Shown one piece after another: positions 6,441 to 46,198 of a stretch of DNA of 64,000 bases. Position numbers and translations under genes: made by a program. The DNA is from Escherichia coli (GTDB lineage: Bacteria > Pseudomonadota > Gammaproteobacteria > Enterobacterales > Enterobacteriaceae): the NCBI RefSeq assembly GCF_016903815.1, contig NZ_CP069973.1; one strand, written 5' to 3'. Position 1 is the first letter of the stretch; the number at the start of each line of letters is the position of its first letter. The notes under the pieces are model-generated. The model was not told where the DNA came from, searched no databases, and was given only the letters and a program-made list of their open reading frames with translations.

Positions 6441-6488
6441 ATAAAACTCCCGAATATATTTTGTTAACCTTGCGGAGATGCCAGGGTA

Positions 6489-7064
6489 TTAATGAATAAT
6501 GCTAGTGCCCATTTGAGTAATAAAGTGACGTAATATTGCTGGATGCCCCATCCAGGTAGTCGCGGTTATTAAATTACCATCCACAATGGCTTCATCATCT
6601 GCGGCAGTGACCCACTGGCCACCCGCCATTTCCACTTCCGGTTTTACCGTAAAATATCCCGTCAGTTTCCGGCCTTTTAATACCCCAGCAGCGGCCAGAA
6701 TTTGTGGGCCATGACAAATTGCAGCAACAGGTAATGTTAAATTCATCGCGTAATGCACGATATCCAATACTGACTTATTTAATCGCAAGTATTCCGATGA
6801 ACGCCCACCAGAAATATAAACACCACTATATTCCTGTAACCTTATGTCATCAAATGATGCAGTTAATCTAAAAAGATGTCCGGGTTTTTCGGTGTAGGTC
6901 TGATCACCTTCAAAATCATGAATCGCGGTTTTAATAAACTCGCCGGTACGTTTTCCCGGACACACTACATCCACTCTGAAACCTAACATGTTTAATGCCT
7001 GCCATGGCACCATGACTTCATAGTCTTCAGAGAAATCGCCTGTGATAAGTAATATCTTCTTCAT
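6489..7064 (-). CDS. DJ-1/PfpI family protein
   Basis: Start taken at MKKILLITGDFSEDYEV; conserved AICHGPQIL nucleophile-elbow-like segment. Confidence 0.5.
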   Translation of the reverse strand: MKKILLITGDFSEDYEVMVPWQALNMLGFRVDVVCPGKRTGEFIKTAIHDFEGDQTYTEKPGHLFRLTASFDDIRLQEYSGVYISGGRSSEYLRLNKSVLDIVHYAMNLTLPVAAICHGPQILAAAGVLKGRKLTGYFTVKPEVEMAGGQWVTAADDEAIVDGNLITATTWMGHPAILRHFITQMGTSIIH

Positions 7065-7074
7065 AAGCGGACTC

Positions 7075-7374
7075 TCAAAACTGGTTATCGTCTTCCTCAA
7101 TGATTCGCATGGCTTCATGCACCGCCGCGACTTCGCCAAAAATGGCCAATGTGGTGATATGCTGAGGGCAACTGCCAAAGATTTCTGATACCACCACATT
7201 GGCGCTTTTACTGGCTACGTCGGCATAAAAATAGAGATCCGGAACCGGCAGTATTAACAAACCAATGGCGTCGATGCGAATCAAATCCAAACGCGAACGA
7301 AACTCCCCGGGCATACGCCGTTTCAACATAGCCAAAATATCCGGGGTCGGTGCGTTTATGATTCGTTTTTTCAT
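7075..7374 (-). CDS. BMC shell protein, PduU/EutS-like
   Basis: 99 aa; pattern resembles circularly permuted BMC domain. Confidence 0.55.
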   Translation of the reverse strand: MKKRIINAPTPDILAMLKRRMPGEFRSRLDLIRIDAIGLLILPVPDLYFYADVASKSANVVVSEIFGSCPQHITTLAIFGEVAAVHEAMRIIEEDDNQF

Positions 7375-7397
7375 CTTTAAGTCACCCTTCGCGATAG

Positions 7398-8915: not shown

Positions 8916-8975
8916 CTTTAAATTCCTTACTACTCTTCATCTGCCGACCGCGCCGCGTGCATCGTCATCAGATGC

Positions 8976-9761
8976 TTAGATATATGGCGTCGTGGTGGAT
9001 TTAATTTCCACCGGATCTAACGTGGAGAGCAGTTGTAGACCGACTTCACGCGCGGCAATCACCGCCTGACGTACTGCACCGGAATCACCGGAGAAGGTGA
9101 AGATCACTTCGTTACTAAAGCTGGTGCCTTGCGACGGGCTGGCATAACCCACCGGGTCAATCACGGCGGATTTCGCCGCAGCGTCGGCAATCACCAGGCC
9201 AATCGCCGCAGGCGAGGCACAGGTCATCCCGAAGGATTTACCAATCGGCGCACCCAGCGCTTTATTCAGCGCGTAGCTGGCACGAGCGGTGTACTGGAAT
9301 TCAAGATGTCCGGCTGACGAGCCATAAACGTCACCCATGGTGCGTTCAATTTCAGACAGCGCCACTTCAACCGCACGCCTGACGTCGGAAACATCAGACG
9401 CACCGAAAATAATTAAGCAACCGTGTCCGCCACCTCCTTCGGTATCGCGGGCCAGCTCAATAGAAATAATTTCGCTGTTGGTTGCTTTAATCGCTTCGTC
9501 AGCCGCAAAAATTTGCGGGCCTGCGCCAGTACGTGCGCCAAGAATACCGATAGAGCGATATTTCTTGTCGATATTCATGACTTCATGCAATTGATTATCA
9601 ACATTGGCAATCACTAGGCCGATAGTGTGGCCCAACGCAGTGCCGACAAATTCCGTAATACCGCAACCAGCGAAATTCGCTGCTGTTTTAGCTTCCGGTG
9701 AGATATCGGTTTGTTTATTCATTACGTCAGATATAATCTGCTCAACAAGATTATCTCTCAT
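8976..9761 (-). CDS. BMC-T shell protein, PduB-like (tandem BMC domains)
   Basis: 261 aa; segments EFVGTALGHTIGLVIANVD, RSIGILGARTGAGP, TARASYAL, GDSGAVRQAV match my recollection of PduB. Confidence 0.7.
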   Translation of the reverse strand: MRDNLVEQIISDVMNKQTDISPEAKTAANFAGCGITEFVGTALGHTIGLVIANVDNQLHEVMNIDKKYRSIGILGARTGAGPQIFAADEAIKATNSEIISIELARDTEGGGGHGCLIIFGASDVSDVRRAVEVALSEIERTMGDVYGSSAGHLEFQYTARASYALNKALGAPIGKSFGMTCASPAAIGLVIADAAAKSAVIDPVGYASPSQGTSFSNEVIFTFSGDSGAVRQAVIAAREVGLQLLSTLDPVEIKSTTTPYI

Positions 9762-9782
9762 GATCAGTATCCTTTATTGTTA

Positions 9783-10064
9783 TTAACCGATAGCCTTCGG
9801 TAGAATTTTTTCCACCTCAATGTGTGGGCGTGGAATAACATGTACGGAGACCAGTTCTCCCACTTTACTCGCAGCAGCGGAGCCCGCATCTGTCGCGGCT
9901 TTCACTGCGCCAACGTCGCCGCGAACCATCACAGTCACCAAGCCGGAGCCGATTTTTTCATAACCCACTAGGGTCACGTTGGCAGATTTCACCATGGTAT
10001 CTGCAGCTTCAATTGCAGAAACCAGACCTTTCGTTTCAACCATTCCTAATGCTTCTTGTTGCAT
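9783..10064 (-). CDS. BMC-H shell protein, PduA/EutM-like
   Basis: Start taken at [14 protein letters not shown]; single BMC domain. Confidence 0.75.
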
Positions 10065-10348
10065 AACGACCTCAATATTTCCGATAGAAAGAAAACGTGC
10101 ACAGAGGAATAGCAATCTACGGATTCACCCATGTGCATTAATTATTTAATTATCATAATGCTAAGGTTATTCAGACAAAATGTTTTGCGCGTCAGTGGGA
10201 CTATCTTGCTTTTGCATTCCCGCAATTGACAATAAAATCCACCCGAGGTTTGTAATAAAAGATCTGCGTTTAAACTTCCTTGCAAAATAGCCCCGCTCTG
10301 AATAGCGATCATAATTACTGTTAAAACTGTCGTATTTTTGCCAATTAG

Positions 10349-11545
10349 TTATGCCGTGCGGGCAATCTCCGCTGCATCTATAGCAATCATTTTTTCTTCA
10401 TTGGTTGGGATGACCGCAATCTTCGTGGTGTCGGTTTTAGAAATCAGTCCGCTACGTCCGCCGAACAGCTGCTGGTTACGTTCTTTATCCAGTTCCAATC
10501 CCAGCGCCTGAAGGCGTTGCACGGTAAGTTCTCGAATTAACGCCGAGTTTTCGCCAATTCCACCGGTGAAAATCAGCGCATCGAAGCGTTTAAGCGAGGT
10601 CACGTGGCCGCCGATATGTCGTGCGAGACGATGTACTAACACGTCGATGGCTAACGCTGCCCGTTCGTGGCCCTCATCACGCGCCTGCTGAAGGGTGCGG
10701 CAATCGCTGGATAAGCCGGAAATCCCCATTAGGCCGGACTGGTTATTGAGCATTTTGTACAGCGTGTCGAATGTTTGACCTGTGCGTTTCGCCAGATATG
10801 CGACGACACCAAAATCAAGATCCCCGCAGCGCGTGCCCATTACCAGCCCTTCCAGCGGGGTCATACCCATTGAGGTGTCAATGCTCGTGCCGTTTTGCAC
10901 CGCACATAGCGATGAACCGTTGCCCAAGTGGGCAATCACGATGCCATGATCCGCCGGGTCGAGATCTAGTGATGCAAGCGCTTCTGCGGCAATATAGCGG
11001 TGAGATGTTCCGTGAAAGCCGTAACGTCGCACCATATAATCTTGCTGGAACTCCAGCGGGATCGCATAGGTGTAAGCAGCCGGAGACAAGGTCTGGTGGA
11101 ACGCAGTATCGAACACCGCAATATGCGGCAACGCGGGCAACAGAGCCCGAGCCGCTTCAATACCAATCAGGTTGGCAGGGTTATGCAAAGGGGCCAGCAC
11201 CGACAGCGCGCGGACTTTTTCGATCACATCATCGGTAACCAGTACTGATCTTTTGAAGTCGCTGCCGCCATGAGCCACGCGGTGCCCAACGGCGTTGATG
11301 GCTTCCAACAGTTGCTGTTCGTCGAGCTTCGCGAAGAGCACTTTGAGCGCATGCTGATGGCTGGCGTCATCCAGCGCGACAGTGGATTTATGGCCGTCTC
11401 GGTCTTTAAACGTTATGACAGCATGATCAATACCCAGTCGTTCCGCTAGGCCCGACAGCAACGGCTGATCTGCATCCTGAGGAATGACGGAGAATTTCAT
11501 TGATGAGGAACCACAATTAATCACTAATACACAAGCTAAAGACAT
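10349..11545 (-). CDS. Acetate/propionate kinase
   Basis: N-terminal VLVINCGSSSMKF motif; start taken at MSLACVLVIN to avoid overlap with upstream gene. Confidence 0.75.
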   Translation of the reverse strand: MSLACVLVINCGSSSMKFSVIPQDADQPLLSGLAERLGIDHAVITFKDRDGHKSTVALDDASHQHALKVLFAKLDEQQLLEAINAVGHRVAHGGSDFKRSVLVTDDVIEKVRALSVLAPLHNPANLIGIEAARALLPALPHIAVFDTAFHQTLSPAAYTYAIPLEFQQDYMVRRYGFHGTSHRYIAAEALASLDLDPADHGIVIAHLGNGSSLCAVQNGTSIDTSMGMTPLEGLVMGTRCGDLDFGVVAYLAKRTGQTFDTLYKMLNNQSGLMGISGLSSDCRTLQQARDEGHERAALAIDVLVHRLARHIGGHVTSLKRFDALIFTGGIGENSALIRELTVQRLQALGLELDKERNQQLFGGRSGLISKTDTTKIAVIPTNEEKMIAIDAAEIARTA

Positions 11546-11573
11546 GATGCCCCCTGAAATGGACTGCAAAAAA

Positions 11574-12071
11574 TTAACGGGTTGTTGTGAGGGGATAACG
11601 CAGAACGCTAAACTGCGCCATCGCCTGGCGGGCGATGAGCATATCTTCCTCAACACTGCCGCCGCTGATGCCGATGCCGCCTAGTAAGCGCCTGCCCGAC
11701 CAGCAGGGAAAACCACCGCCGAAGCAGCAGATATCTTTTTCTTTCTCAAGGCCGTACAAATCACCACCCGGCTGTACCAGCGTTGCCAGTTCGTGAGTTG
11801 GCATTTTGAGAGCTACCGCGGTCCAGGCCTTTTGTGGTGCCAAGGTATGGCTGACCAGCAGGGCGTTATCCATGCTGAAGAAAAAACGCTGCTGACCGCA
11901 GGCATCCACTAGGCTAAAAACGATCGATACATTGCTGGACTGTGCCATTTCCCGGGCCAACTTTGCCAGCAGTTCACTGTCCTCCAGGCTCAGCGACATC
12001 CGGAGTTCCGGTAACTGCGTGGCAATAGCCTCATTAATCCAGTTGTCGAGTGAAGCCTCATTCGCAGACAT
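11574..12071 (-). CDS. DUF336/GlcG-like (PduO C-terminal domain-like) protein
   Basis: 165 aa; GGIGISGG-type motif. Confidence 0.55.
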   Translation of the reverse strand: MSANEASLDNWINEAIATQLPELRMSLSLEDSELLAKLAREMAQSSNVSIVFSLVDACGQQRFFFSMDNALLVSHTLAPQKAWTAVALKMPTHELATLVQPGGDLYGLEKEKDICCFGGGFPCWSGRRLLGGIGISGGSVEEDMLIARQAMAQFSVLRYPLTTTR

Positions 12072-12098
12072 AAGTATTCCTCAGCGTACGCGCCGCTA

Positions 12099-12368
12099 TT
12101 AACCGTTAAGTTCGAGCGTGTCGACGATACCCACCACGGCAGCGTCAATCACCGAGTGATCTTTGTTGTTGCTCATACGCGCCGAACTGCCGGTGGTGAT
12201 GATCACAATCTCTCCATTGCCCGCGCCGACAGTATCAACTGCCACCTGGGCATGGACAGTCGGCTGATAGTTTTCATCGAGCCGCGCCACTATCAGCAGT
12301 TTTGAGCCATTCAGCGAGGCGTGTTTGGTGGTGGAAACCAATGCGCCAGTAACTTTAGCGAGGTACAT
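12099..12368 (-). CDS. BMC vertex protein, EutN/PduN/CcmL family
   Basis: 89 aa with typical BMC-P size and pattern. Confidence 0.7.
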   Translation of the reverse strand: MYLAKVTGALVSTTKHASLNGSKLLIVARLDENYQPTVHAQVAVDTVGAGNGEIVIITTGSSARMSNNKDHSVIDAAVVGIVDTLELNG

Positions 12369-12379
12369 ATTTCCTCCGG

Positions 12380-13105
12380 TTAACCATGGATAACAGTGAG
12401 ATTACGCCGCTGGATTTCATCTCTGGCAGCAGGGGTAATCAGCGTGTCGCTCTCAATGCGCAGCACTGTGCCAATGGTCAGTAGGCGGATATCGCTCTGG
12501 GTGATTAAACGTTTTTTACCGGCTACTGTCAGGGTGGATTGGCTTCCTTGCACCGACTTGACATGGGCTGCACGTTTACCGAAAAGCGTAATGCCATAGC
12601 TCTCTAGGACCTGAGCGTAACCTTCCAGACAAGACAGCAGTGGCATCGGTAATTCGCTATCGACGCATTGTTGATGCAGCGTGGCGATAATCTGTTTACG
12701 GTGCTGTAACGCCTGAAATACAGTTTCACAGGCCAGATTATCGCGAATGCCCAGCGCAATTTTGCTCATGCTGTTGACAGAGAGCGCAGGCAGATAGAGC
12801 ACCTCATAGTGAGGCGGCGATCTGTCAAATCCAGCACGAGAACCACGCTGAATTAGCGCATCCATGCAGACAGATTTCAGCGCCGACTGGCTGGCGCTGT
12901 GAGAAAAATTTACCCACAACTGATAGCCCGCCAGCTCAAGCGCCTCAAGGCAGTTCAGCGTTTCCGGCAGCGAGGAGATATCCTCACCAGTCACCACTAC
13001 GCAGACATTTTTCTGCGCGACGGATTGTGCCAACACTTCAGCGATGACCCGGTCCAGCAGTTGCGATAAGGTTTGATTGTCCATTGATTTACCCCTGGTC
13101 CGCAT
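12380..13105 (-). CDS. Hypothetical microcompartment-locus protein (possibly PduM-like)
   Basis: 241-aa ORF embedded in the operon; no motif I can place confidently. Confidence 0.35.
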   Translation of the reverse strand: MRTRGKSMDNQTLSQLLDRVIAEVLAQSVAQKNVCVVVTGEDISSLPETLNCLEALELAGYQLWVNFSHSASQSALKSVCMDALIQRGSRAGFDRSPPHYEVLYLPALSVNSMSKIALGIRDNLACETVFQALQHRKQIIATLHQQCVDSELPMPLLSCLEGYAQVLESYGITLFGKRAAHVKSVQGSQSTLTVAGKKRLITQSDIRLLTIGTVLRIESDTLITPAARDEIQRRNLTVIHG

Positions 13106-13847
13106 TCATGGCGATGCCTAATGGTGTGACCAATAGTGGCTCTGCCGAAGGAATCACATTTTTACCGGTTTGTTTACTGAACACGTTGGCAAACTGGCTG
13201 AAGCTGCTCGCGCCACCTACCAAATAAATATTTTTTACCTGCTGGGTAGCGAACCATCCCGACACCAAGCTGGCCATTTTCTGGGCCACCGGTAGCACCA
13301 GGGTAAAGACCTGCGCTTCCTGCCCGTTTTTTTTCATTTCTTCCGCCTCGGCATAAGGCAAGCCCAGCGCGCCAGCGATCACCAACTTCATATGGCTTCC
13401 ACCGGTGGGCTCATCGGCACTGAACGTCACTTTACCGCTTTTCAAAATGCTCATGCCGGTGGTGCCTCCTCCGACATCCACCACCGCCCCGTTTTTAATA
13501 TTCAGCGCGCTGGCAGCGGCTACCGGTTCATCTAGTACTTGGGTCACGATAAAACCCGCCAACTCCACTACGTTGACGATCACTTTTGTGTTGCCTTCAG
13601 AGATCCCCGGTGGGACTGCGATCGCCGCGCGCTCCAGCGTGCAGCCCTGTTTCTGTTCAAGAATTTGTTTGAGACGTGCTACTACCCGGCTGGCGGTCAG
13701 GTAATCCACCACCACGCCGTCTTTCACCACATTGGAGGGATACATTACCCCTGCCACCGGCTGGTTATCTTCATCCAGCACCACGATTGCGATATTGGCG
13801 GTACCGAGATCCCCCCCACCTTCAACGCGCCGGAGTAGGGCCGACAT
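13089..13847 (-). CDS. EutJ-like actin-fold ATPase/chaperone
   Basis: DLGT near N-terminus, VVDVGGGTTG, DEPTGGSH segments typical of EutJ. Confidence 0.7.
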   Translation of the reverse strand: MSALLRRVEGGGDLGTANIAIVVLDEDNQPVAGVMYPSNVVKDGVVVDYLTASRVVARLKQILEQKQGCTLERAAIAVPPGISEGNTKVIVNVVELAGFIVTQVLDEPVAAASALNIKNGAVVDVGGGTTGMSILKSGKVTFSADEPTGGSHMKLVIAGALGLPYAEAEEMKKNGQEAQVFTLVLPVAQKMASLVSGWFATQQVKNIYLVGGASSFSQFANVFSKQTGKNVIPSAEPLLVTPLGIAMNADQG

Positions 13848-13901
13848 TCGCCGCTGTCAATCAGCGCGGCCAATTCGTGAAATCGGCAGTTTTCGGGGCT
13901 G

Positions 13902-14588
13902 TTAGCCATGGCGCGCAGCCTGTTTTATGCCGCGAACGGTATCGCCATTACGCAGACCGACGCCGTTAGCTTCTTCCATATCAATATGCAGTTCCAGCAC
14001 TGCATCCGCCGTGACGCGTACCACTACATGGCTGAGCACACCACCGCGCGGACCGTTTGTTTGCACATCGATTTCCATTCCGTCATGCAGGCCGTGCAAT
14101 TCGGCTTCTTCGGGCGAGATATGGATATGGCGCCAGGCGACAATCATGCCGTTGTGTTTCACCACCCGCCCTTTCGGACCGATGATTTCAATGCCCGGCG
14201 AATCCAGCAGATCCCCCGACATGCGCACCGGAGCTTTAGTGCCCAGCGCAAAGCCGTCGGCCACAGAGATTTCCACCTGCGTGGCATTACGCAGTGGCCC
14301 TAACACGCGCACTTTGTTGAGCTCGCCTTTTGGCCCGCGCAGCGTCACCATCTCTTCGGCGGCATACTGACCGGGCTGTTTCAACGCTTTAGAACGGGTT
14401 AGCGTAGAGCCGTAGCCAAACAGAATGTCCATATCTTCACGGCACAGATGAACATGGCGGTTGGACACGCCCACCGGAATATTCAGCGCGACGGGCGCGG
14501 CAGCAGGCGCTGCCGTTTTTTTACTGGTGGCAAGTTCCTGCAAAATTTGTTGGGTAATCCACTCGGCTTGTTGTTCGGTGTAATTCAT
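13902..14588 (-). CDS. PduL-type phosphotransacylase
   Basis: 228 aa with two PduL-like repeats (HVHL...; HIHIS...). Confidence 0.7.
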   Translation of the reverse strand: MNYTEQQAEWITQQILQELATSKKTAAPAAAPVALNIPVGVSNRHVHLCREDMDILFGYGSTLTRSKALKQPGQYAAEEMVTLRGPKGELNKVRVLGPLRNATQVEISVADGFALGTKAPVRMSGDLLDSPGIEIIGPKGRVVKHNGMIVAWRHIHISPEEAELHGLHDGMEIDVQTNGPRGGVLSHVVVRVTADAVLELHIDMEEANGVGLRNGDTVRGIKQAARHG

Positions 14589-14727
14589 AATGGGTACGAC
14601 CTGATTATTGGGTTATCTTATGGGTAATGGGCGTCTAACGATCAGGATAGGGAGTAACGACGCCCGGTTTTTGTTTATCAGCAGGACTTTTTTGACTGCT
14701 TCACGGAGGCTGAACAAAGTTATCCAG

Positions 14728-15846
14728 CTAGCCGGTAATCAGGTCGATCAACCCTTCGACATCATGCGTCGTCACCTGCCGCGGGTTCGACGCGGTACAA
14801 CCGTCGGCCAGCGTCGAATTCACCAGTGCGCTGCGCAACTCGATGATTTTTGCACGGTCGATACCCAGTTCGCTGAGAGTGACGGGGATGCAGAAATGGC
14901 GATTGATCTGGCGGATCTCCTGAGTCATCAGCGCGATGGCCTGCTCCGGTACCGCATGGTCAATGCCTATGATTTGCGCGCAACGGTGATAGCGATCGCG
15001 GGTTTCAGTGCTGGCCCGTTTGCTGTTGAAGTCGATGACAATCGGCAGCAGCATGGCGTTAATTTTGCCATGAGGAATATGCAGCATCCCGCCGATGGCG
15101 TGTGCCATGCCGTGTACCAACCCCAGCCCGGCGGAGTTAAATGCCATGCCTGCCATACAGGAGGCATTGTGCATGTGGGTGCGCGCCGCAATGTCTTTTT
15201 CGTCGTTAAACACCTGCGGCAGATAGCGCCAGGTCAACGCGATGGCTTTTTCCGCCAGCGCATCGCTAAAGTCATTTGAGCCAGTAGAGACAAAGGCTTC
15301 AATGGCATGGGTCAGCACGTCCATGCCGGTATCTACCGCGACATGACGCGGCGCGGTTAACACTAGGTTAGGATCGAGAATGGCGATTTCCGGCACCAGT
15401 TGCCCGGAGATCAACGGATATTTGCGGCCATTTTGCGGATCAGAGATGATCGCGTAGGACGTCACTTCAGAGCCGGATCCGCTGGTTGTGGGAATAGCAA
15501 TGAGATCGATTTGATGATCTCCAAAATACTCTTCCAATGTGACTTTAATTCCTTTCGCAGCGTCCAGCGACGAGCCGCCGCCGAGGGCGATAATAACGTC
15601 GGGCTTAAAGGCTTTAAAACGCGCCGCGCCGGAAGTCAGAATATCAATATCTGGATCCGGAGTAACCTCGCCGAAAATGCATACCGATGCCTCAGGCATA
15701 TGGCTTATTAAATAACGAGTTTTACCTGATGACATCATAAAATCATCGGTGACAATACCGACTCGTTTATTATTAAATTGGCATAGAGAGGTTATTGCCT
15801 CTTCACCAAAATAAATTTTGGGGCACGAAAAATAATAGCGGGCCAT
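14728..15846 (-). CDS. Iron-containing alcohol dehydrogenase (PduQ/EutG-like)
   Basis: 372 aa; GGGSSLD and metal-binding His-rich segment; first gene of the minus-strand cluster. Confidence 0.8.
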   Translation of the reverse strand: MARYYFSCPKIYFGEEAITSLCQFNNKRVGIVTDDFMMSSGKTRYLISHMPEASVCIFGEVTPDPDIDILTSGAARFKAFKPDVIIALGGGSSLDAAKGIKVTLEEYFGDHQIDLIAIPTTSGSGSEVTSYAIISDPQNGRKYPLISGQLVPEIAILDPNLVLTAPRHVAVDTGMDVLTHAIEAFVSTGSNDFSDALAEKAIALTWRYLPQVFNDEKDIAARTHMHNASCMAGMAFNSAGLGLVHGMAHAIGGMLHIPHGKINAMLLPIVIDFNSKRASTETRDRYHRCAQIIGIDHAVPEQAIALMTQEIRQINRHFCIPVTLSELGIDRAKIIELRSALVNSTLADGCTASNPRQVTTHDVEGLIDLITG

Positions 15847-17899: not shown

Positions 17900-18265
<366 letters not shown>

Positions 18266-27427: not shown

Positions 27428-28252
27428 CTACTGAAGGTGTTTCTGCAGCCAGATGCACGTTCCTTCTATATCATACGCCTGTGCCCCATACCCTTTAGCA
27501 AGCAAAGTCTCTGGTAAATACTCGTCATATTTATCCAGATACTTGTCGGGAACAACTGCAGCAAGCTCAAACTCTGAAGGTAGCCCCGACAATAGCATTT
27601 TCTTAAGTGCACGCTGGACAGAGGCAACGCCTGAGTCCTCTACCTCTATCACACCTGCAAATGAACTGGCTTTAAAGCCACAACGTATAATCAGGGACGT
27701 AATTGTATTGACAATTTTATCCCCCATCCACGGGATCACGTAGCAGTTCTGACCACTGGCAATAAAACAGTCATTTTGTAGATTGTAGCGTTGGAAGTTG
27801 TCACTTCCTTCCGCGAAGAGGCTTCTGGCTGCGGCATCAGCATAATCGACTCTCTTGTTGCCTACCGCGATACGGTAATCATTTTCCCTGTAGATAGTGA
27901 GCATTTCCTGGCGAACAACATCATGAACAGACATCCCGGTACCACTGAATAGTGGCGGCTGACCGCCTTTAGTCGTCTCAACATAGATAACCTTTTTTTC
28001 AACCTCGATCTCTGTCACTTTCCAGCGCCGTCCGCCGAAGATGATGTGCTGCTCCGGCAAAAGTGGGGAGTCTACAGGCACTGTGCCAAGAGTTCGGTTT
28101 CCCGTTACAATGCGAAACTCCTCAGGTGTATTGAATACGGCATAAAACGTGTAGTGATTAGTCAGCTTCTCCCCCTCAGCCCCGACAACTATTTCACCGC
28201 TGGTTAGTTGAGTGAGCAGTACGGGGTCGGACCGGTATGCAGCGAACTGCAT
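27428..28252 (-). CDS. Hypothetical protein abutting an IS junction (possibly N-terminally truncated)
   Basis: 274-aa ORF whose 5' end overlaps the start of the IS3-family OrfB frame on the opposite strand. Confidence 0.4.
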   Translation of the reverse strand: MQFAAYRSDPVLLTQLTSGEIVVGAEGEKLTNHYTFYAVFNTPEEFRIVTGNRTLGTVPVDSPLLPEQHIIFGGRRWKVTEIEVEKKVIYVETTKGGQPPLFSGTGMSVHDVVRQEMLTIYRENDYRIAVGNKRVDYADAAARSLFAEGSDNFQRYNLQNDCFIASGQNCYVIPWMGDKIVNTITSLIIRCGFKASSFAGVIEVEDSGVASVQRALKKMLLSGLPSEFELAAVVPDKYLDKYDEYLPETLLAKGYGAQAYDIEGTCIWLQKHLQ

Positions 28253-28604
28253 ATTGCCCCGTCAACGTATTACCATTGTCAGCAACAGCGACATCATCCG
28301 GATAAACGCAGTGCCCGTGTGCAGCACGATGACTGGCTGAAGAGAGAGATACAGCGCGTATACGATGAAAATCATCAGGTGTACGGTGTGCGTAAAGTCT
28401 GGCGTCAGTTGTTACGGGAAGGAATCAGGGTGGCCAGATGTACAGTGGCGCGCCTCATGGCGGTTATGGGACTTGCCGGTGTTCTCCGGGGTAAAAAGGT
28501 CCGTACGACCATCAGCCGGAAAGCCGTTGCCGCAGGCGACCGCGTAAACCGTCAGTTCGTGGCAGAACGTCCTGACCAGTTGTGGGTGGCTGATTTTACT
28601 TACG
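28208..28604 (+). CDS. IS3-family transposase OrfB, 5' exon
   Basis: Ends ...ERPDQLWVADFTY just before GTGTG. Confidence 0.6.
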
Positions 28605-31347
<2,743 letters not shown>

Positions 31348-31389
31348 GTTCACAGATAAAACACTCTCCAGGAAACCCGGGGCGGTTCA

Positions 31390-31539
31390 TTCCTAAAAAG
31401 ACATGTCTTGCCCAATATACTCAACATGAACTAGATCTGGTTGCTGCTCAGCTAAACAACAGACCGAGAAAGACACTGAAATTCAAAACACCGAAAGAGA
31501 TAATTGAAAGGGGTGTTGCATTGACAGATTGAATCTACA
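31390..31539 (+). mobile_element. IS30 3'-terminal fragment
   Basis: Encodes ...[34 protein letters not shown] and ends in terminal repeat ...TTGACAGATTGAATCTACA. Confidence 0.5.
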
Positions 31540-31874
31540 GTAGCCTTTTTTAATATTTCATTCTCCATTTCAATGCGTTGTAGCTTTTTCCTCAGCTTAC
31601 GTATTTCGATTTGTTCTGGTGTTATCGGAGAGGCTTTTGGTGTTTTGCCCTGATGCTCATCACGCAGTTGTTTGACCCATCTTGTCATTGTGGAAAGGCC
31701 AACATCCATAGCTTTGGCGGCATCTGCCACCGTGTATTTCTGGTCAACAACCAGTTGAGCGGATTCGCGTTTAAACTCTGCGCTAAAATTTCTTTTTTTC
31801 ATTGGAGCACCTGTGTTGTTCTGAGGTGAGCATATCACCTCTGTTCAGGTGGCCAAATTCAGTGTGCCACTTCA
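31540..31874 (-). mobile_element. IS911 5' fragment (left inverted repeat plus most of OrfA), truncated by the IS30 fragment
   Basis: Orf[22 protein letters not shown]...EILKKAT then divergence; IRL TGAAGTGGCACACTGAATTTGGCC at 31851-31874. Confidence 0.6.
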
Positions 31875-32219
31875 AGCCGGGAGCGGCGTCAGCCAGTCTC
31901 CCTTTACCCGCGCTTTTTCGGAAAGCCCACCCCAATGTTTTTCTCCTACACCCCAGCCGGTCAGCAGGACCTTATCCCCGGTCTGATATTCAGGATGTGA
32001 GCTGGCGGACACTGTACCGGCAAAATCAATGCCTGGCACCATTGGAAAGTGCCGGACGATAGGCCCGCGGCCCGTAATAGCCAGTGCGTCTTTGTAGTTG
32101 ATAGATGAACAGTCGACATTGACCTCCACATCCCCCTGTGGCAGCTCGCTTTCAGCGATTTCAGCAATTTGGGCACTGTGGCGGTCATCCATCTTACTGA
32201 TTAATAATGATTTAAACAT
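31872..32219 (-). pseudogene. N-terminal fragment of a YhdH/AcuI-like zinc-type oxidoreductase, truncated by IS911
   Basis: 115-aa ORF (...[33 protein letters not shown]...) runs directly into the IS911 end. Confidence 0.5.
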
Positions 32220-32823
32220 TTTTTTTCTCGTCTTTCTGGTTTGATGTCATTGAGCTATAAAGTAGTCAATAAACAATATTGACCGATCGTCTAATAATCA
32301 ACGCTGATATCCCAGTGTTTGTCAGAAAACAAGAATTGCTTTTCTTTTCATCAGGTTAAATCTATCTTTTTTGATTTATATCAAACCAGATTCGGTCTTC
32401 AATTATATAGGCATCAATGTTAGCGGTCCTACAAGATACGCAGTCGATGCTTCAGGGCGTACTGATGAAATAAAACAAGTAGGCTGAGATTAGTTGGTCT
32501 GCTCATCGCTCACAGCGGACCTTCAGCTTCGTTAGCCAAGCGCTGACATAGTTACCGATGTAGCGTGTTAATCTGTCGGGAGCATAGCCGAAATCACTTA
32601 ATCCATTAGACTTCACCTAAAACTGCAAAAATTACCGTCTTTGTCACACTCACCGAGTTTAATCAAACTAACACTGTACATAGTGCGAACAAGAGCCAAC
32701 CAGAAAGACTGTTCAGCATCAACAGTGAAGTTTTTCCCCGCCACTTCCCCGCAATTCCTCCGCAGTTTTCCCACTAGAGAGTTCGACACATCCCTTGCAT
32801 ACCAACGCTTTGATTCAAATCTC

Positions 32824-33588
32824 GGTAGTGCATCCAATTAGTAGAATATGTGTTTTTCGATAAATGCTCCGATCACTTTTTCGTGGATCTCAACTGAGCG
32901 TGAGAAGCAGATTGTTTACGAGCCAACCGCTTAATGTGGGTGCGTAGCGTCAGATTATTACGCTCAATGCGTTGGGTGAATATTTTGCCGGTCAGATGCT
33001 TATTCTTCGGCACCACCCGGCCATAGCTGTCCCAGTCATCGCTGGTGAGCATGCCGATGTTGAAGGGTGTAAGCAGTGCCAGTAGCTCCCGGCACGTTTG
33101 ATTGGTTCGGGGACCAAAAGTGTAGGCCAGTACACCGCCTGTTTTGGTGTTGTACGCGTACCAGAGCCAGTGTAGCCGGGCTTTACTGCCAACGTAGCTC
33201 CATTGCTCATCAAGCTCGCAGATAAGCGCCACATCAGCATGGGCAACAGGCGAAGAAGTTATTTGCGTTGGCGCGAGTTTTTTAAAGTCCGGATGATGGT
33301 GTTAATACCAATTTTCAGTGTCCTGGCGGTATCGCGAACCCCGGCACCATTAAAGGCCATTTCAGTGATCATCTCTTTCATACCCGGCTTACGTGCTTGA
33401 TAAGTATAAGTGAGCTGAAACACACGGTGGCAGTCACGGCAGCGAAATCTGTCACGGCCTTTAGGGTTCTGACCATGGCGGTAAACCTGAGCTGACTGAC
33501 AACGGGGACAATGAATATTAACGCTGGCCATGAGATAACCTCAAAAGCCCGTATTATACATCAGATTCAACCAATTAGAGGCATCACC
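32824..33588 (-). mobile_element. IS1-family insertion sequence, divergent isoform (InsA-like 33259-33531, InsB-like 32873-33232)
   Basis: InsA-like zinc-finger ORF and InsB-like ORF; terminal repeats GGTAGTGCATCC... and ...GGCATCACC. Confidence 0.7.
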
Positions 33589-33783: not shown

Positions 33784-35253
33784 ATGCATATCGATTCGAC
33801 TGAAAAAAATAATAAACAAAAGTTGGGCTTGCTTGCGCTAACATCCATTGTCGTGAGCTCGATGATCGGCAGCGGCGTTGACGGACTCCCCCAGAATATG
33901 GCGGAGAATTCTGCCGTGGGCCCGGTGGCGATAGCATGGATAGTCTGTGGTATCGGCATGTTTTTCATCTCCAGAACTTTTATCGTGCTGTCAAACATTA
34001 GACCTGATCTCCAGTCAGGAGTTTATATGTATGCCCGGGAAGGGTTCGGCCGATTTACGGCATTTAACGTCGCCTGGGGCTACTGGCTGATGACTATATT
34101 CAGCAACGTCGCCTTTGCCATTATGGTGATGGATACGCTGAATTATTTCTTACCAGGTGATTTCAAGGGAGGGAACAATATTCCTTCCGTTATCGGTGCC
34201 TCTTTGCTGATATGGGGATTCAACTTTTTAGTCCTCTCCGGTACCCGCATTGCCGGGTCGATTAACATCGTCGGCACGCTGGCCAAACTGATCCCGCTGG
34301 TGGCCTTTATTATTATTCTCATGCTGTTTATGAAGTACACCACGTTCGCAGATAACGTCTGGGGGCACAGCGCGAGTAAGGCCAGTCAGGACCTAGGCTC
34401 TATTTTCTCACAGGTAACTTCACCGCTTAGCGTGGCACTCTGGAGCTTCATCGGCGTTGAGGGGGCTGTCGCTCTTTCCGGTCGGGCCAAAAATAAACGC
34501 GACGTGGGTAAAGCCACATTCATTGGCTTCGTTGTATCACTGATTATCTGTCTGCTGGTCTCCATCCTGCCGTTTGGCGTGCTGACTCAACATGAGCTCA
34601 GCGCAATTCCAACCCCATCCACCGCCGGTATTCTGAAGATTGTTGTCGGTGAATGGGGGAAGATTATGATTATCTTGGGGGTGCTGATTTCGGTGCTTAC
34701 CAGCTGGCTGGCGTGGACCATCATCTGCGCCGAACTGCCTATGGTGGCCGCGCAGAACGGCACATTCCCGAAACCGTTCAGCAAAAAAAATGTGAAGGGT
34801 TCGGCCTCGGTTTCGCTTTATATAAGCAGTGCGTTTATGCAAATCGTCGTACTTCTGGTCTACTTTTCTAACGATGCCTGGCTTGCAATGCTGGCTATCT
34901 CTACCCTGACCGTTTTACCTGCGTATTTAATGACCACGGCATACCTGTTTAAACTATGTATTAGCGGCGAGTATGCCAGCTATACCACGAATCACAGCCG
35001 CAGCGCCGCGCTGGTCAGCAGTATTATCGGCTTTGTATTCTGCCTGTTTATGTTCTACGCCAGTGAAATCAAATATCTGGCGATGGTTCCGGTGCTGCTT
35101 ACGCTGGGCGTGCCCCTGTTTATCTGGGCAAGAAAAAAAGACGATCGCGCAGATAAAATATTTACGCTACGCGAACTGGCATTTTTTATTTTACTGCTGG
35201 TCCTCGACATCATTGTTTTTATTCTACTGCATTATAAAACGATACATTTTTAG
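33784..35253 (+). CDS. APC-superfamily amino acid/polyamine antiporter (CadB/PotE/AdiC-like), copy 1
   Basis: 489 aa, about 12 TM segments; N-terminal SMIGSGV-type motif. Confidence 0.8.
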   Translation: MHIDSTEKNNKQKLGLLALTSIVVSSMIGSGVDGLPQNMAENSAVGPVAIAWIVCGIGMFFISRTFIVLSNIRPDLQSGVYMYAREGFGRFTAFNVAWGYWLMTIFSNVAFAIMVMDTLNYFLPGDFKGGNNIPSVIGASLLIWGFNFLVLSGTRIAGSINIVGTLAKLIPLVAFIIILMLFMKYTTFADNVWGHSASKASQDLGSIFSQVTSPLSVALWSFIGVEGAVALSGRAKNKRDVGKATFIGFVVSLIICLLVSILPFGVLTQHELSAIPTPSTAGILKIVVGEWGKIMIILGVLISVLTSWLAWTIICAELPMVAAQNGTFPKPFSKKNVKGSASVSLYISSAFMQIVVLLVYFSNDAWLAMLAISTLTVLPAYLMTTAYLFKLCISGEYASYTTNHSRSAALVSSIIGFVFCLFMFYASEIKYLAMVPVLLTLGVPLFIWARKKDDRADKIFTLRELAFFILLLVLDIIVFILLHYKTIHF

Positions 35254-35357
35254 TCCAGATTAATTCACAGCAAGTTAAGGTGACGATAATGTCTGTTTCT
35301 TGGGCATGACATCCTCACAGTTAAATACTATCTGAACAGTAACAGTGGAGACACCTA

Positions 35358-37727
35358 ATGAAATTTAACCACAATCTTTTATTTATTTCCTCACAATATC
35401 TTGATGGCGACAACCCTTCGCAGCAGGTACTGGAAGAGCTTCAAACCGAACTCGCGGAACGCGGTTTTAAAATTCATATCACGCACCAGATCTCTGATGG
35501 ATTAAAAATCATCGAAAAAAGCCCCCAATACAGCGGGATTGGTTTTTACTGGGAGCCAGACAATCCGACCTTTGCAGAAGAGCTACAGCACTTTATCAGC
35601 ATATTCCGCAAAAGAAATGCCACGACGCCGCTGATAATTTTCTCAGAACAGAATATTACCGATCGTATCCCACTCGACGTCTTAAAAGAGGTCAGCGAAT
35701 ATGTTTATCTGTTCTCTGAATCCGCAGCCTTCACTGCCAATCGACTGTACTCCTTAGTCCACCGCTATGCGGATAAGCTTCTTCCTCCCTACTTTAAAAC
35801 CCTTAAGGACTTTACCGAGGACGGTGACTATTACTGGGACTGCCCGGGGCATATGGGGGGAATGGCCTATCTGAAACATCCTGTTGGCATTGAGTTCATT
35901 AACTTCTTTGGCGAAAACATGATGCGCGCTGATATTGGCGTGGCTACCGCGGAGATGGGGGATTATCTGATCCACGCCGGACCGCCTAAAAAATCGGAAG
36001 AAATTGCGGCCCGACTGTTTGGCTCTGATTGGACCTTCTACGGTGTTTCCGGCTCATCGGGGTCGAACCGTATTGTGGCCCAGGCTGCGGTTGGCGCAGA
36101 TGAAATTGCCATTATTGACCGAAATTGCCACAAGTCACTTAATCATGGCCTGACCTTGTCTCAGGCAAGGCCGGTTTACCTGAAACCTACCCGCAACGCG
36201 TGGGGGCTGATTGGGCCTATCCCGACCGGACGCCTGAAGAAGGCCAGTATTGATGCGCTGGTGGCAAACAGCCGACTGGCATCTGGTGCGGTCAGCCAGT
36301 CCCCGTCCTACGCCGTGGTAACCAACTGCACCTATGATGGCTTCTGTTATAACGTGAACGATGTAGTCAGACACCTGGGTGAAAGCGCACCGCGCATCCA
36401 TTTTGATGAAGCATGGTATGCCTATGCGCGTTTCCATCCGCTATACCAGAGTCGCTATGCAATGGACGCGGAGGAAACGCCAAATCGTCCAACCCTATTC
36501 GCCGTACAGTCCACCCATAAAATGCTGCCCTCACTCTCCATGGCCTCAATGATTCATGTGAAGAAAAGCGATCGCGCGCCGCTTAATTTCGATGACTTTA
36601 ACGATGCCTTTATGATGCACGGCACGACCTCACCCTACTACCCGATCATTGCATCAATTGATGTGGCAGTAAGCATGATGGAGGGTGAATCCGGTTATTC
36701 GCTTGTGCAGGAGTCAATTGAAGAAGCGATTGCCTTCCGTAAAGCCGTGGTCAGCGTCAAGCGCCAGCTCCAGGAGCAGGAAGGTGGTGACGCCTGGTTC
36801 TTCGATGTGCTTCAGCCAACCGAAGTGCAGGACAGCGATTCTGGGCAGCGATACAGTTTTGAAGAGGCACCCGTATCGCTGCTGAGCCACAGCGCCGACT
36901 GCTGGTCGCTGCGCTCCGGTGAGCGCTGGCACGGTTTTGCCGATGATGATCTGGTCGAAACCAACAGTATGCTCGATCCAGTAAAAGTGACCCTGACTTG
37001 TCCAGGGATCGGCCCGAAGGGAGAATACCAGAAAAACGGTATTCCGGGATATTTGCTGACCCGTTTTCTCGATGACCGTCGCATTGAAATTGCCCGTACT
37101 GGTGACTACACCGTGCTGATCCTGTTCTCCGTCGGCATCACCAAAGGCAAATGGGGAACTCTGATTGAAAGCCTGCTGGCCTTTAAAAAGCATTACGACA
37201 ATGACGATCTGGCCACAGATGCTATCCCGTCGCTGAAAGCGCATTCTCCACACTACGACACGCTAACCCTCAAGGAGCTATGTCAGATAATGCATGAAAA
37301 AATGGATGAGCTGGAGCTGATGTCGCATATCAACGACGCGGTAAACACCGATCCGGAACCAGTTATGACCCCGGCAGAAGCCTATCAGAAAGTCGTACGC
37401 TACAAAACCGAGCATATCCGGCTGGATGATTTTAGCGGCAGAATTGCCGCCAGCATGCTCGTCCCATATCCCCCAGGCATTCCTGTACTGATGCCGGGCG
37501 AACGGATGCCGCAAGGTAACAAGGGCATTATTGGCTATCTGCGCGCCCTGCAGGAATTCGATAAGCAATTCCCAGGTTTTGAACATGAGATCCAGGGCGT
37601 TAACGTCGATGAAGACGGGGACTTCTGGGTCAGAGCGATTGTGGAAGAAGAACGCGATGGGCAGTCGCTACCCGGCCACATAACCTTTAAACGCCAGGTC
37701 TCTGGTATTAAAAAGGGCCGCCAGTAG
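35358..37727 (+). CDS. Orn/Lys/Arg decarboxylase family protein (fold-I PLP, wing domain), substrate unknown
   Basis: 789 aa; PLP-lysine motif QSTHKMLP; N-terminal wing domain; overall similarity to AdiA/SpeF/CadA. Confidence 0.85.
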   Translation: MKFNHNLLFISSQYLDGDNPSQQVLEELQTELAERGFKIHITHQISDGLKIIEKSPQYSGIGFYWEPDNPTFAEELQHFISIFRKRNATTPLIIFSEQNITDRIPLDVLKEVSEYVYLFSESAAFTANRLYSLVHRYADKLLPPYFKTLKDFTEDGDYYWDCPGHMGGMAYLKHPVGIEFINFFGENMMRADIGVATAEMGDYLIHAGPPKKSEEIAARLFGSDWTFYGVSGSSGSNRIVAQAAVGADEIAIIDRNCHKSLNHGLTLSQARPVYLKPTRNAWGLIGPIPTGRLKKASIDALVANSRLASGAVSQSPSYAVVTNCTYDGFCYNVNDVVRHLGESAPRIHFDEAWYAYARFHPLYQSRYAMDAEETPNRPTLFAVQSTHKMLPSLSMASMIHVKKSDRAPLNFDDFNDAFMMHGTTSPYYPIIASIDVAVSMMEGESGYSLVQESIEEAIAFRKAVVSVKRQLQEQEGGDAWFFDVLQPTEVQDSDSGQRYSFEEAPVSLLSHSADCWSLRSGERWHGFADDDLVETNSMLDPVKVTLTCPGIGPKGEYQKNGIPGYLLTRFLDDRRIEIARTGDYTVLILFSVGITKGKWGTLIESLLAFKKHYDNDDLATDAIPSLKAHSPHYDTLTLKELCQIMHEKMDELELMSHINDAVNTDPEPVMTPAEAYQKVVRYKTEHIRLDDFSGRIAASMLVPYPPGIPVLMPGERMPQGNKGIIGYLRALQEFDKQFPGFEHEIQGVNVDEDGDFWVRAIVEEERDGQSLPGHITFKRQVSGIKKGRQ

Positions 37728-37801
37728 GCGGGGGAAAGAACAATACCGTCGGATCGCCTGCAATCCGACGGCAATATTATAGAATAGCTGAGGGAAACGT
37801 T

Positions 37802-39301
37802 ATGGCAGAGCAATCTTCAGATGTAAAAAATAGTGACAATAGCGCCGGAGGACATAAGCTGGGGCTTATATCCCTCATCGCTATTGTCGTTAGCTCCATG
37901 CTGGGAGGCGGCGTTTTCAGTCTGCCGCAAAACACGGCGGCCTCTTCTGCACTAGGGCCAGTAATCATTGCATGGATTATTGCCGGGATCGGTATTTATT
38001 TTATCGCAAACTCCTTTCGCGTACTATCAGATCTGCGCCCGGACCTTCAGGCTGGAGTGTATATGTATGCCCAGGAAGGTTTTGGTTCCTTTATTGGCTT
38101 TAACGTCGCCTGGGGCTACTGGCTGATGACCGCATTTGGCAACGTTGCCTTTGCGGTAATTTTAATGGATGCTTTTAATCAGTTTATGCCGGGGGTTTTT
38201 ACGGATGGTAATAATCTGAACTCCATTATCTGCGGCTCAGTGCTGATCTGGGGCTATAATTTTCTTGTTCTGTCCGGGACGAAAGTGGCCGGATTTGTTA
38301 ACACCTTGGGAACCATCGCCAAGCTCGTCCCTCTGATCCTATTCGTATTACTGCTGGGTGTGCTGATCGATTATTCGGACCTGTTTAAAAACTTTTGGGG
38401 AGAATCACCCGCGATCCTCAGTGGCAACGGAAATGACGCCGCACCAGTATCGCTGCTGTCTCAGATTCTGGCACCGATGACCGTAACGCTCTGGGCCTTT
38501 ATTGGCGTCGAGGGAGCGGTTGTTCTATCCGGACGTGCCAAAAATAAACAGGACGTAGGGAAAGCCACACTGATCGGCTTTCTGCTGGCGCTAATTATTT
38601 ATATGTTAATGTCCATTCTGCCGTTCGGTGTAATGCCTCAGGCAGAACTAGCGCAGGTCAGTAACCCCTCTACCGCAGGCGTGCTCGCCCACGTTGTCGG
38701 TCAGTGGGGCGACTGGCTGATGAGCGCGGGGCTGATTATTTCTGTTCTGGCCGGCTGGCTTGCCTGGACCATGCTATGCGCTGAAATACCGATGGTAGCA
38801 GGACAGAAAGGCGCTTTCCCGCGCGCGTTTGCCCGAACGAACAGTAAACAGGCGGCCAATGTGTCACTGTGGGTTAGTAGCTTTGTGATGCAGGCGGCCA
38901 TGTTACTTGTTTATTTTTCAAATAATGCTTGGACCACCATGTATAATATCAGTGCGCTGATGGTTGTTCCGGCCTATATTACCACCACGCTGTATCTGAC
39001 CAGTATTTGCAGAAACGGAAAATATGATCAGTATGCAAAAAAAGGCCGCAGGCTGGCTTTGTCCAGCGGTGTTTTAGGCTCGCTATTCTGTCTGTTTATT
39101 CTTTACGCCAGCCAGATTGAGTATGTTGCATTAATTCCTATCCTGTTGACCTGTGGTCTGCCGGTCTTTATCTGGTCAAGAAAAGAAAAAAATGATGGTC
39201 AGCCGATATTTACCAAAAAAGAGCTGATTTATCTGATTATGCTGTTGCTGTGCGATATTATCGTCGTTGCCCTGTTTATTGGTGGATATTTAAAGGTATA
39301 A
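37802..39301 (+). CDS. APC-superfamily amino acid/polyamine antiporter, copy 2 (paralog of 33784-35253)
   Basis: 499 aa; collinear with copy 1 (e.g. RPDLQAGVYMYAQEGFG vs RPDLQSGVYMYAREGFG). Confidence 0.8.
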   Translation: MAEQSSDVKNSDNSAGGHKLGLISLIAIVVSSMLGGGVFSLPQNTAASSALGPVIIAWIIAGIGIYFIANSFRVLSDLRPDLQAGVYMYAQEGFGSFIGFNVAWGYWLMTAFGNVAFAVILMDAFNQFMPGVFTDGNNLNSIICGSVLIWGYNFLVLSGTKVAGFVNTLGTIAKLVPLILFVLLLGVLIDYSDLFKNFWGESPAILSGNGNDAAPVSLLSQILAPMTVTLWAFIGVEGAVVLSGRAKNKQDVGKATLIGFLLALIIYMLMSILPFGVMPQAELAQVSNPSTAGVLAHVVGQWGDWLMSAGLIISVLAGWLAWTMLCAEIPMVAGQKGAFPRAFARTNSKQAANVSLWVSSFVMQAAMLLVYFSNNAWTTMYNISALMVVPAYITTTLYLTSICRNGKYDQYAKKGRRLALSSGVLGSLFCLFILYASQIEYVALIPILLTCGLPVFIWSRKEKNDGQPIFTKKELIYLIMLLLCDIIVVALFIGGYLKV

Positions 39302-39443: not shown

Positions 39444-39719
39444 GTGGCTTCCATTTCCATCAGATGTCCTTCCTGCTCCGCTACTGAAGGCGTGGTGCGT
39501 AACGGCAAAAGCACTGCCGGACATCAGCGCTATCTCTGCTCTCACTGCCGTAAAACATGGCAACTGCAGTTCACTTACACCGCTTCTCAACCCGGTACGC
39601 ACCAGAAAATCATTGATATGGCCATGAATGGCGTTGGATGCCGGGCAACTGCCCGCATTATGGGCGTTGGCCTCAACACGATTTTACGTCACTTAAAAAA
39701 CTCAGGCCGCAGTCGGTAA
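39444..39719 (+). CDS. insA: IS1 InsA
   Basis: [40 protein letters not shown]. Confidence 0.9.
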
Positions 39720-40141
39720 CCTCGCGCATACAGCCGGGCAGTGACGTCATCGTCTGCGCGGAAATGGGCGAACAGTGGGGCTATGTCGGGGCTAAATCGC
39801 GCCAGCGCTGGCTGTTTTACGCGTATGACAGGCTCCGGAAGACGGTTGTTGCGCACGTATTCGGTGAACGCACGATGGCGACGCTGGGGCGTCTTATGAG
39901 CCTGCTGTCACCCTTTGACGTGGTGATATGGATGACGGATGGCTGGCCGCTGTATGAATCCCGCCTGAAGGGAAAGCTGCACGTAATCAGCAAGCGATAT
40001 ACGCAGCGAATTGAGCGGCATAACCTGAATCTGAGGCAGCACCTGGCACGGCTGGGACGGAAGTCGCTGTCGTTCTCAAAATCGGTGGAGCTGCATGACA
40101 AAGTCATCGGGCATTATCTGAACATAAAACACTATCAATAA
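39638..40141 (+). CDS. insB: IS1 InsB
   Basis: 167-aa ORF identical to the InsB of copy B. Confidence 0.9.
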
Positions 40142-42133: not shown

Positions 42134-42637
42134 TTATTGATAGTGTTTTATGTTCAGATAATGCCCGATGACTTTGTCATGCAGCTCCACCGATTTTGAG
42201 AACGACAGCGACTTCCGTCCCAGCCGTGCCAGGTGCTGCCTCAGATTCAGGTTATGCCGCTCAATTCGCTGCGTATATCGCTTGCTGATTACGTGCAGCT
42301 TTCCCTTCAGGCGGGATTCATACAGCGGCCAGCCATCCGTCATCCATATCACCACGTCAAAGGGTGACAGCAGGCTCATAAGACGCCCCAGCGTCGCCAT
42401 CGTGCGTTCACCGAATACGTGCGCAACAACCGTCTTCCGGAGCCTGTCATACGCGTAAAACAGCCAGCGCTGGCGCGATTTAGCCCCGACATAGCCCCAC
42501 TGTTCGCCCATTTCCGCGCAGACGATGACGTCACTGCCCGGCTGTATGCGCGAGGTTACCGACTGCGGCCTGAGTTTTTTAAGTGACGTAAAATCGTGTT
42601 GAGGCCAACGCCCATAATGCGGGCAGTTGCCCGGCAT
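42134..42637 (-). CDS. insB: IS1 InsB
   Basis: Identical translation to copy A InsB. Confidence 0.9.
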
Positions 42638-42831
42638 CCAACGCCATTCATGGCCATATCAATGATTTTCTGGTGCGTACCGGGTTGAGAAGCGGTGTAA
42701 GTGAACTGCAGTTGCCATGTTTTACGGCAGTGAGAGCAGAGATAGCGCTGATGTCCGGCAGTGCTTTTGCCGTTACGCACCACGCCTTCAGTAGCTGAAC
42801 AGGAGGGACAGCTGATAGAAACAGAAGCCAC
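42556..42831 (-). CDS. insA: IS1 InsA
   Basis: Near-identical to copy A InsA. Confidence 0.9.
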
Positions 42832-46122: not shown

Positions 46123-46198
46123 TGGTGCCCGGACTCGGAATCGAACCAAGGACACGGGGATTTTCAATCCCCTGCTCTACCGACTGAGCTATCCGGGC
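46123..46198 (-). tRNA. pheU: tRNA-Phe (anticodon GAA)
   Basis: Reverse complement reads GCCCGGATAGCTCAGTCGGTAGAGCAGGGGATTGAAAATCCCC...GGGCACCA, 76 nt. Confidence 0.9.

Follow-up and report, generated by a model that had tools for sequence, protein, structure and literature searches.

What disrupted the oxidoreductase gene that stops after 115 codons in a genomic island of Escherichia coli, and in which order were the insertion sequences (ISs) beside it laid down? We studied this locus within a window of 64,000 nucleotides, i.e. the whole 64-kb stretch of DNA that was analysed, which is 100% identical to positions 4744618-4808617 of the chromosome of E. coli 7/2 (NZ_CP023820.1). The first-pass annotation, made from the sequence alone, had described nested IS scars that truncate a yhdH/acuI-like gene. 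Our analysis suggests, with a probability of roughly 80%, that the region is a non-functional stack of IS junctions in the pheU island that inactivated an accessory acuI gene. Such a scar is ordinary IS-driven decay in a tRNA-linked island, a known kind of change that matters little in itself, and RefSeq/PGAP already annotates all four fragments as pseudogenes. Our analysis adds to the earlier description a fourth element, the ancestral locus in its intact form, a junction census across genomes, and evidence for recombination between IS copies besides nested insertion.

The island site is pheU, by the tRNA-Phe gene at window positions 46123-46198, which bounds the island, and the adjoining dicD-dsbD-cutA genes. 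According to the annotation the island carries a Grp propanediol microcompartment operon, type VI secretion fragments, ibrAB/perC and several IS elements, along with an IS1-flanked decarboxylase/antiporter block. The Grp (glycyl-radical propanediol) operon is complete from grpA to grpO and lies on the minus strand at 1820-15846. Three IS1 copies are seen at 32838-33531, 39444-40141 and 42134-42831, and the first two bracket an antiporter, an Orn/Lys/Arg decarboxylase and a second antiporter (33784-39301), with the look of a composite transposon. This block travels with acuI in all comparator islands. The features of the scar are the following.

28195-31389, plus strand: IS1203/IS629-like element of the IS3 family without its first 385 nt (98.97% identical to the copy on plasmid L004)
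about 28605 to 30874: group II intron in the IS1203-like element, bracketed by the uninterrupted copies of L008
31390-31539, plus strand: IS30 tail, nt 1072-1221 (149/150 identical to IS30A of K-12)
31452-31838, minus strand: chimeric open frame from the ORF list, 87 full OrfA codons and 29 codons of antisense IS30
31874 to 31540, minus strand: IS911 head, nt 1-335 (334/335 identical to the full-length IS911 of L010)
32219 to 31875, minus strand: acuI-like 5' remnant, codons 1-115 (ORF list and alignment to the intact gene)
32220-32837, no strand: acuI upstream sequence that aligns collinearly with the intact TUM14664 locus up to the neighbouring IS1

The truncated gene matches the N-terminus of an intact orthologue of 327 aa at 112 of its 115 residues, and the homology to the intact gene ends exactly at 31875. 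The IS911 repeat supplies the stop codon TGA (31874-31872) with its own first three bases, in agreement with the earlier claim that this repeat cuts the oxidoreductase gene after 115 codons. The remnant aligns to positions 1-114 of the 325 in the NCBIfam model for AcuI (NF051456) and reaches 176.6 bits, below the equivalog cut-off of 440 bits, while the intact orthologue scores 478.6 bits and its neighbour scores 266.6 bits against AcuR (cut-off 247 bits). Only the ADH_N (GroES-like) domain of Pfam is kept in the remnant; ADH_zinc_N is restricted to the intact orthologue, and the NADPH-binding Rossmann domain is missing from the remnant. The AcuI family is known for acrylyl-CoA reduction and acrylate tolerance (PMC3338564).

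A search of related genomes for the intact oxidoreductase, which the first-pass annotation had proposed as a check, located it on the Enterobacter plasmid pE76_001 (the 327-aa orthologue, 94% nucleotide identity) and in TUM14664. The latter has the same island context with all members intact, i.e. BCCT transporter, DUF2254, acuR, acuI, IS1, antiporter, decarboxylase, antiporter, IS1 and integrase; PGAP names the intact pair acuI and acuR, the product of acuR being a TetR regulator of the AcuR type. The intact island protein is 51% identical to the core YhdH/AcuI of K-12. By these alignments we take the window gene to be the remnant of an accessory acuI-like gene, a paralogue predicted to encode an acrylyl-CoA reductase, and not yhdH itself. 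The earlier name yhdH/acuI-like is correct, with the refinement that the gene is an accessory paralogue.

The stretch at 32220-32837 is the side of the scar that was left undisturbed, and the IS1 beside acuI is annotated at the matching place in L001, L006, L014 and L020. Two small differences were seen near the gene start: upstream of acuI, at about 32737-32747, the window carries 11 bp (TTCCCCGCCAC) that are inserted relative to TUM14664, and it differs from CFT073, L014 and L015 by 1 bp in the length of a T-run just upstream of the acuI start codon (32225).

Some part of the acuI module is found in 1277 of the 5426 complete E. coli genomes, and four genomes have it intact. The accessory acuI-acuR module is therefore nearly always broken in E. 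coli, with 4 of the 1277 carriers of any part keeping it whole. We observed at least four ways of breakage, namely IS911 at codon 115, insertion of IS100 (the interrupted allele of L007), a common 3'-only remnant that keeps acuR (L016) and truncations of acuR; the comparators are L006 (7484-9181), L007, L016 and L008.

To place the IS junctions we used as references the IS30A copy of K-12 (L003 2542-3762, 1221 bp) and the full-length IS911 copy on a pINV plasmid (L010 1501-2749), and every junction was found where the first-pass annotation had put it. The 150-bp IS30 tail (BLAST E-value 1e-74) does end in a terminal repeat as claimed: the right repeat GTTGCATTGACAGATTGAATCTACA is exact at 31515-31539, with 0 chance matches expected from 100 shuffles, and the inverted repeat ends in ...GAATCTACA, consistent with the 26-bp terminal repeat of IS30 (...TCTACA). 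The tail codes for the last 46 transposase codons, with the stop codon at 31530-31532, and matches positions 241-267 of the 267 in the NCBIfam model transpos_IS30. These 150 bp are all the IS30 sequence found in the window, so that the element is incomplete and keeps one end; the comparators K-12 and plasmid L005 show a duplication of AC at the same target.

The IS911 head (E-value 1e-173) is 100% identical to the CFT073 copy. Its left repeat TGAAGTGGCACACTGAATTTGGCCACC is exact at 31848-31874 with the tip at 31874 (0 chance matches expected), and it begins with TGAAGTGG..., which together with the near-identity marks the element as IS911. The orfA gene starts at 31802 and is broken within codon 88, just as the earlier reading of an OrfA cut after ...EILKKAT implies. 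The A-AAA-AAG frameshift heptamer lies at 31546-31552 and the cut is 6 nt beyond it. Pfam recognizes HTH_Tnp_1 in the head (2e-14), while orfB with the DDE domain, the right repeat and the 3-bp target duplication are missing, nt 336-1250 being absent from the site. The chimeric frame of 128 codons reads through ...EILKKAT into antisense IS30; PGAP labels it an incomplete transposase pseudogene, and most likely it is a by-product of the join and no gene.

A separate 3' fragment of IS911 (nt 979-1249, 98.5% identical) lies at 17995-18265 on the plus strand and ends in the right repeat, which immediately precedes a 3'-5' exonuclease gene. We asked if this fragment could be the reciprocal half of the head, but neither its strand, opposite to that of the head, nor its flank (GTTTTTTTATTT), which has no relation to acuI, supports this.

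At the left edge of the IS30 tail we found an element missed by the first-pass annotation, the right end of an IS1203/IS629-like IS. Its right inverted repeat ends in ...CCCGGGGCGGTTCA at 31389 and cuts IS30 at 31389/31390. The whole stretch at 28195-31389 aligns to positions 386-3581 of a complete intron-bearing copy on plasmid L004, and its tail shares 95-96% identity with the multi-copy IS1203/IS629 found in O157 strains. In L011, another genome, the right end seen in the window adjoins unrelated DNA. On its left side the window element breaks off at its own nt 385/386, where it abuts a helicase pseudogene.

The intron of this element has a reverse transcriptase ORF at 29261-30784 and group II domains V-VI at 30788-30874, which are the sole match in the Rfam scan. 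It is located within orfB of the IS1203-like element. Further copies of this intron-bearing element are found on plasmids (L004) and elsewhere in chromosomes (L011), through either mobility of the unit or homing of the intron into the IS. The 5' part of the intron matches K-12 DNA directly downstream of IS911A-1 at 95.5% (L003 4164-4387, in CP4-6 near eyeA/ykfC), so that K-12 has a remnant of the same intron beside its own IS911::IS30 scar. The tip of the right repeat, GGCGGTTCA (31381-31389), agrees at 6 of 9 bases with the IS30 nt 1063-1071 that it replaces, GGCAGTACT. A related intron-bearing element inserted independently in L004 (1500-1515 and 5088-5095), 11 bp away, in the same orientation and with a duplication of ACA. 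The tip match and this nearby insertion may reflect a regional target preference.

Three junctions define the scar: J1 joins the right end of the IS1203-like element to IS30 nt 1072, J2 joins the IS30 right end to IS911 nt 335, and J3 joins the IS911 left end to acuI codon 115. We found J3 in 354 genomes, J2 together with J3 in 158 and J1 with J2 in 147, and the full arrangement of the window would be present in about 147. An intermediate with the acuI remnant, IS911 1-335 and a complete IS30 is seen in CFT073 and about 8 other records, and the gap of about 11 between 158 and 147 corresponds to it. All compared J3 alleles are identical over 31875-32173, in a SNP comparison that used positions up to 32225, beyond which a 1-bp indel shifts the alignment, and this fits a single origin of J3. 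Private SNPs of the window lineage are at 31481, 31654, 32184-32185 and 32208. The three exact junctions provide lineage markers for pheU-island variants, with 354, 158 and 147 genomes, respectively.

The J3 genomes without IS30 carry a full-length element at the junction. Plain IS911 was considered for this element, and the alignment gave a hybrid (L014) or a mosaic (L015) instead. A hybrid that fuses IS911 nt 1-332 to the tail of a different IS3-family member (L014 7753-9000) occupies the junction in 189 genomes; in a few others, e.g. M114, an IS911/ISEc52-type mosaic leads into yjhV-fecE of the KpLE2 region. The census adds up (158 + 189 + about 7 = 354). We also asked if the hybrid could be a multi-copy IS, and it is single-copy in both full-length examples listed. 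As its count (189) roughly accounts for the J3 genomes without IS30, we read it as a local recombination product. Its frameshift site looks intact and PGAP labels it a functional IS3-family transposase.

In total we count three IS joins, the insertion of an intron and one or more deletions or recombinations, so the earlier count of at least three successive events is a safe minimum. We infer the order J3, J2, J1 from the nested counts and the one intermediate. The ancestral module was a BCCT transporter, DUF2254, acuR, acuI, IS1 and the antiporter/decarboxylase genes. IS911 would have transposed into acuI first and only once, between codons 115 and 116, as the exact IS end at J3 suggests, and the insertion would then have been inherited or spread. 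IS30 would have followed by insertion at a preferred target in IS911, a stage with complete IS30 that CFT073 may retain, though J2 could instead have come in from an IS911::IS30 copy that already existed, e.g. IS911B::IS30D of the K-12 type, through recombination with it. The IS1203-like element would have entered IS30 last, in the window lineage, at nt 1071/1072.

Simple insertion is not the whole story, since the 3' part of acuI is absent from the 7/2 chromosome, where the gene has a single matching place. The reciprocal junction would be the IS911 right end followed by GCT and acuI codon 116 (GGCGCAAATAGC...). No genome class ending at this reciprocal breakpoint was found among the genomes searched, nor any genome in which IS911 has an acuI half on either side and a 3-bp duplication. 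The sequences missing from the site are IS30 nt 1-1071, IS911 nt 336-1250, the acuI 3' part, acuR, DUF2254 and the BCCT gene. Events between IS copies, either homologous recombination or deletion, would have taken them out, and the missing halves were probably lost in this manner and not by the insertions themselves. Because the IS1203-like element of the window is itself truncated, the sequence to its left must have been replaced later.

The comparators show what such exchanges look like. In CFT073 (within L020 5384-7856) the two flanks of IS30 do not match, with ...GGCTAC (AC, from the IS911 head) on one side and GCGGCGTAC... (GC, from another IS3-family tail) on the other, so this IS30 is a recombinant of two IS30 copies in different IS3-family hosts. 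An exchange of this kind would remove all that lies between the two copies, provided that they were directly oriented. The hybrid of the 189 genomes equals the CFT073 structure minus IS30 plus 5 bp, across a GC microhomology. For members of the IS30 family, near-precise loss has been documented (bioRxiv 10.1101/2023.06.07.543989), and the hybrid could be formed either by such a loss or by direct exchange at the shared 20-bp frameshift motif, with the same product. In M114 the crossover is inside the IS911 head, at about nt 190-210.

The simplest history would be strict nesting in situ, with IS911 in acuI, IS30 in IS911, the IS1203-like element in IS30 and one later leftward deletion, and we consider it possible though doubtful. 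It would explain why CFT073 has a complete IS30 beside the same IS911 head and acuI remnant and why the J1+J2 count (147) is nested within that of J2+J3 (158), and fully nested copies with target duplications do exist on plasmids. However the CFT073 IS30 is already recombinant (AC vs GC and a different IS3-family tail), the truncation of the IS1203-like element at nt 385/386 against unrelated DNA needs at least one more event, and an IS911 tail or acuI 3' part beyond the nest was seen in no genome. Each host in the window is represented by one half only, whereas both halves are present in L005, L004 and K-12. Of the nested scars described by the first-pass annotation the junctions hold, and strict nesting in situ is less probable than a history with recombination.

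An alternative hypothesis could be that the block of the IS1203-like element, IS30 tail and IS911 head was formed elsewhere, e.g. on an F-type plasmid, and recombined through the 335-bp head onto an IS911 borne by acuI. Plasmids of Shigella flexneri (NZ_CP058791) and E. coli (NZ_CP097214) do carry a nearly identical triple block (97%), and recombination of the acuI-borne IS911 head with other copies is demonstrated. Yet the IS1203-like element on these plasmids sits 11 bp further in (IS30 nt 1083-1085, not 1071/1072), the elements of the plasmid block differ by about 1%, and the exact J1 of the window is on no PLSDB plasmid, which make import as one block unlikely.

We regard it as very improbable that the remnants are kept for a function, be it the truncated OrfA (HTH and most of the leucine zipper) acting in trans as an IS911 regulator or a residual role of the acuI N-domain. 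OrfA is described as a modulator of IS911 target choice (Loot 2002, as cited in PMC9333248), which would suit the former role, as would the open frame of 128 codons and the 100% conservation of the block in many genomes. Against this, recent common descent accounts for the conservation, PGAP calls all four pieces pseudogenes, the promoter/terminator scan gave nothing above the shuffled expectation, and the acuI remnant is without its nucleotide-binding domain. Judged by content, none of the pieces would be expected to work, as acuI lacks the NADPH-binding domain and the three IS fragments have neither a transposase nor two ends. An assembly artefact or chance resemblance can be dismissed, as the 1.1 kb around the scar is 100% identical in the 7/2 chromosome (NZ_CP023820.1) and many other independent complete genomes, well over 100 independently finished genomes sharing the identical sequence, and the terminal-repeat matches have zero chance expectation.

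The reading that we prefer is a dead stack of IS junctions reshaped by recombination between IS copies. The IS30-in-IS911 join is widespread and recurrent and not private to the window locus. The J2 target is the dinucleotide AC at IS911 nt 334-335, 6 nt past the frameshift heptamer. A junction of the window type with a largely complete IS30 is found in 1120 genomes, and the K-12 IS911A::IS30A type, with IS30 in the opposite orientation, in 1025. Plasmid L005 has a complete IS911(334-823) - IS30 - IS911(335-1) with a duplication of AC, and plasmid L004 has the complete nest of IS911::IS30::IS1203-like with a duplication of ACA. A different IS3-family tail adjoins the left end of IS30 in both TUM14664 and CFT073, with the join shifted 3 bp upstream and the flank GC. 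Two orientations and a shifted site in another host require three or more independent IS30 insertions.

IS30 is known to prefer hot-spot sequences and to make 2-bp duplications (PMC9333248), and the recurrent insertion in IS911 fits both properties. The IS911 target was also aligned to LHS, the IS30 hot spot of lambda; the best of about 530 placements is 14/26 identical with its centre at lambda 33290/33291, which is the end of the published LHS left half (PMC9333248). This resemblance is no more than suggestive. We speculate, at somewhat less than even odds, that the IS911 frameshift window (TTAAAAAAGGCT-AC-CGCG) is a natural IS30 hot spot where IS30 copies swap the heads and tails of IS3-family elements. 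Near-precise IS30 loss would then leave intact-looking hybrids like that of the 189 genomes, and the window scar would be one branch. From the comparison of K-12, CFT073 and the plasmids, IS30 is seen to target IS911 nt 334-335 recurrently, and the heads of ISs act as recombination hinges between islands.

Known systems resemble the locus in part. The solved structures closest to the intact orthologue are those of YhdH/AcuI (MDR012 family; E. coli YhdH, PDB 1O89), while the window gene is an island- and plasmid-borne paralogue of which residues 1-115 are left. Two K-12 loci carry related joins. In IS911B::IS30D (KpLE2, 4.507 Mb) the right end of an inverted IS30 directly adjoins an IS911 head (334 bp in the annotation), as in the window, but IS30D is complete, an IS600 fragment and the rest of IS911B come next, and the head adjoins yjhE. 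In IS911A::IS30A (CP4-6, 0.27 Mb) IS30 is at the same AC (nt 334-335) with a 2-bp duplication, but its left end is against the head, and IS30 sits in a variant of about 90% identity to IS911, called ISEc52-like by PGAP; the interruption of IS911A by IS30A has been described (PMC9333248, Fig. 3 legend). The pheU island of CFT073 (4.291-4.293 Mb) has identical junctions of acuI codon 115 with IS911 and of IS911 nt 335 with the IS30 right end. It differs in that IS30 is complete and followed by another IS3-family tail, the IS1203-like insertion is absent, and Qat and SLATT defence genes lie further left. The F-type plasmid NZ_CP058791.1 of Shigella flexneri has IS911::IS30::(IS1203-like + group II intron) in the same relative orientations as the window. 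Unlike the window, it retains all halves with duplications AC and ACA, has a different flank past the IS911 left end, and received its IS1203-like element 11 bp from the window's site, at IS30 nt 1083-1085.
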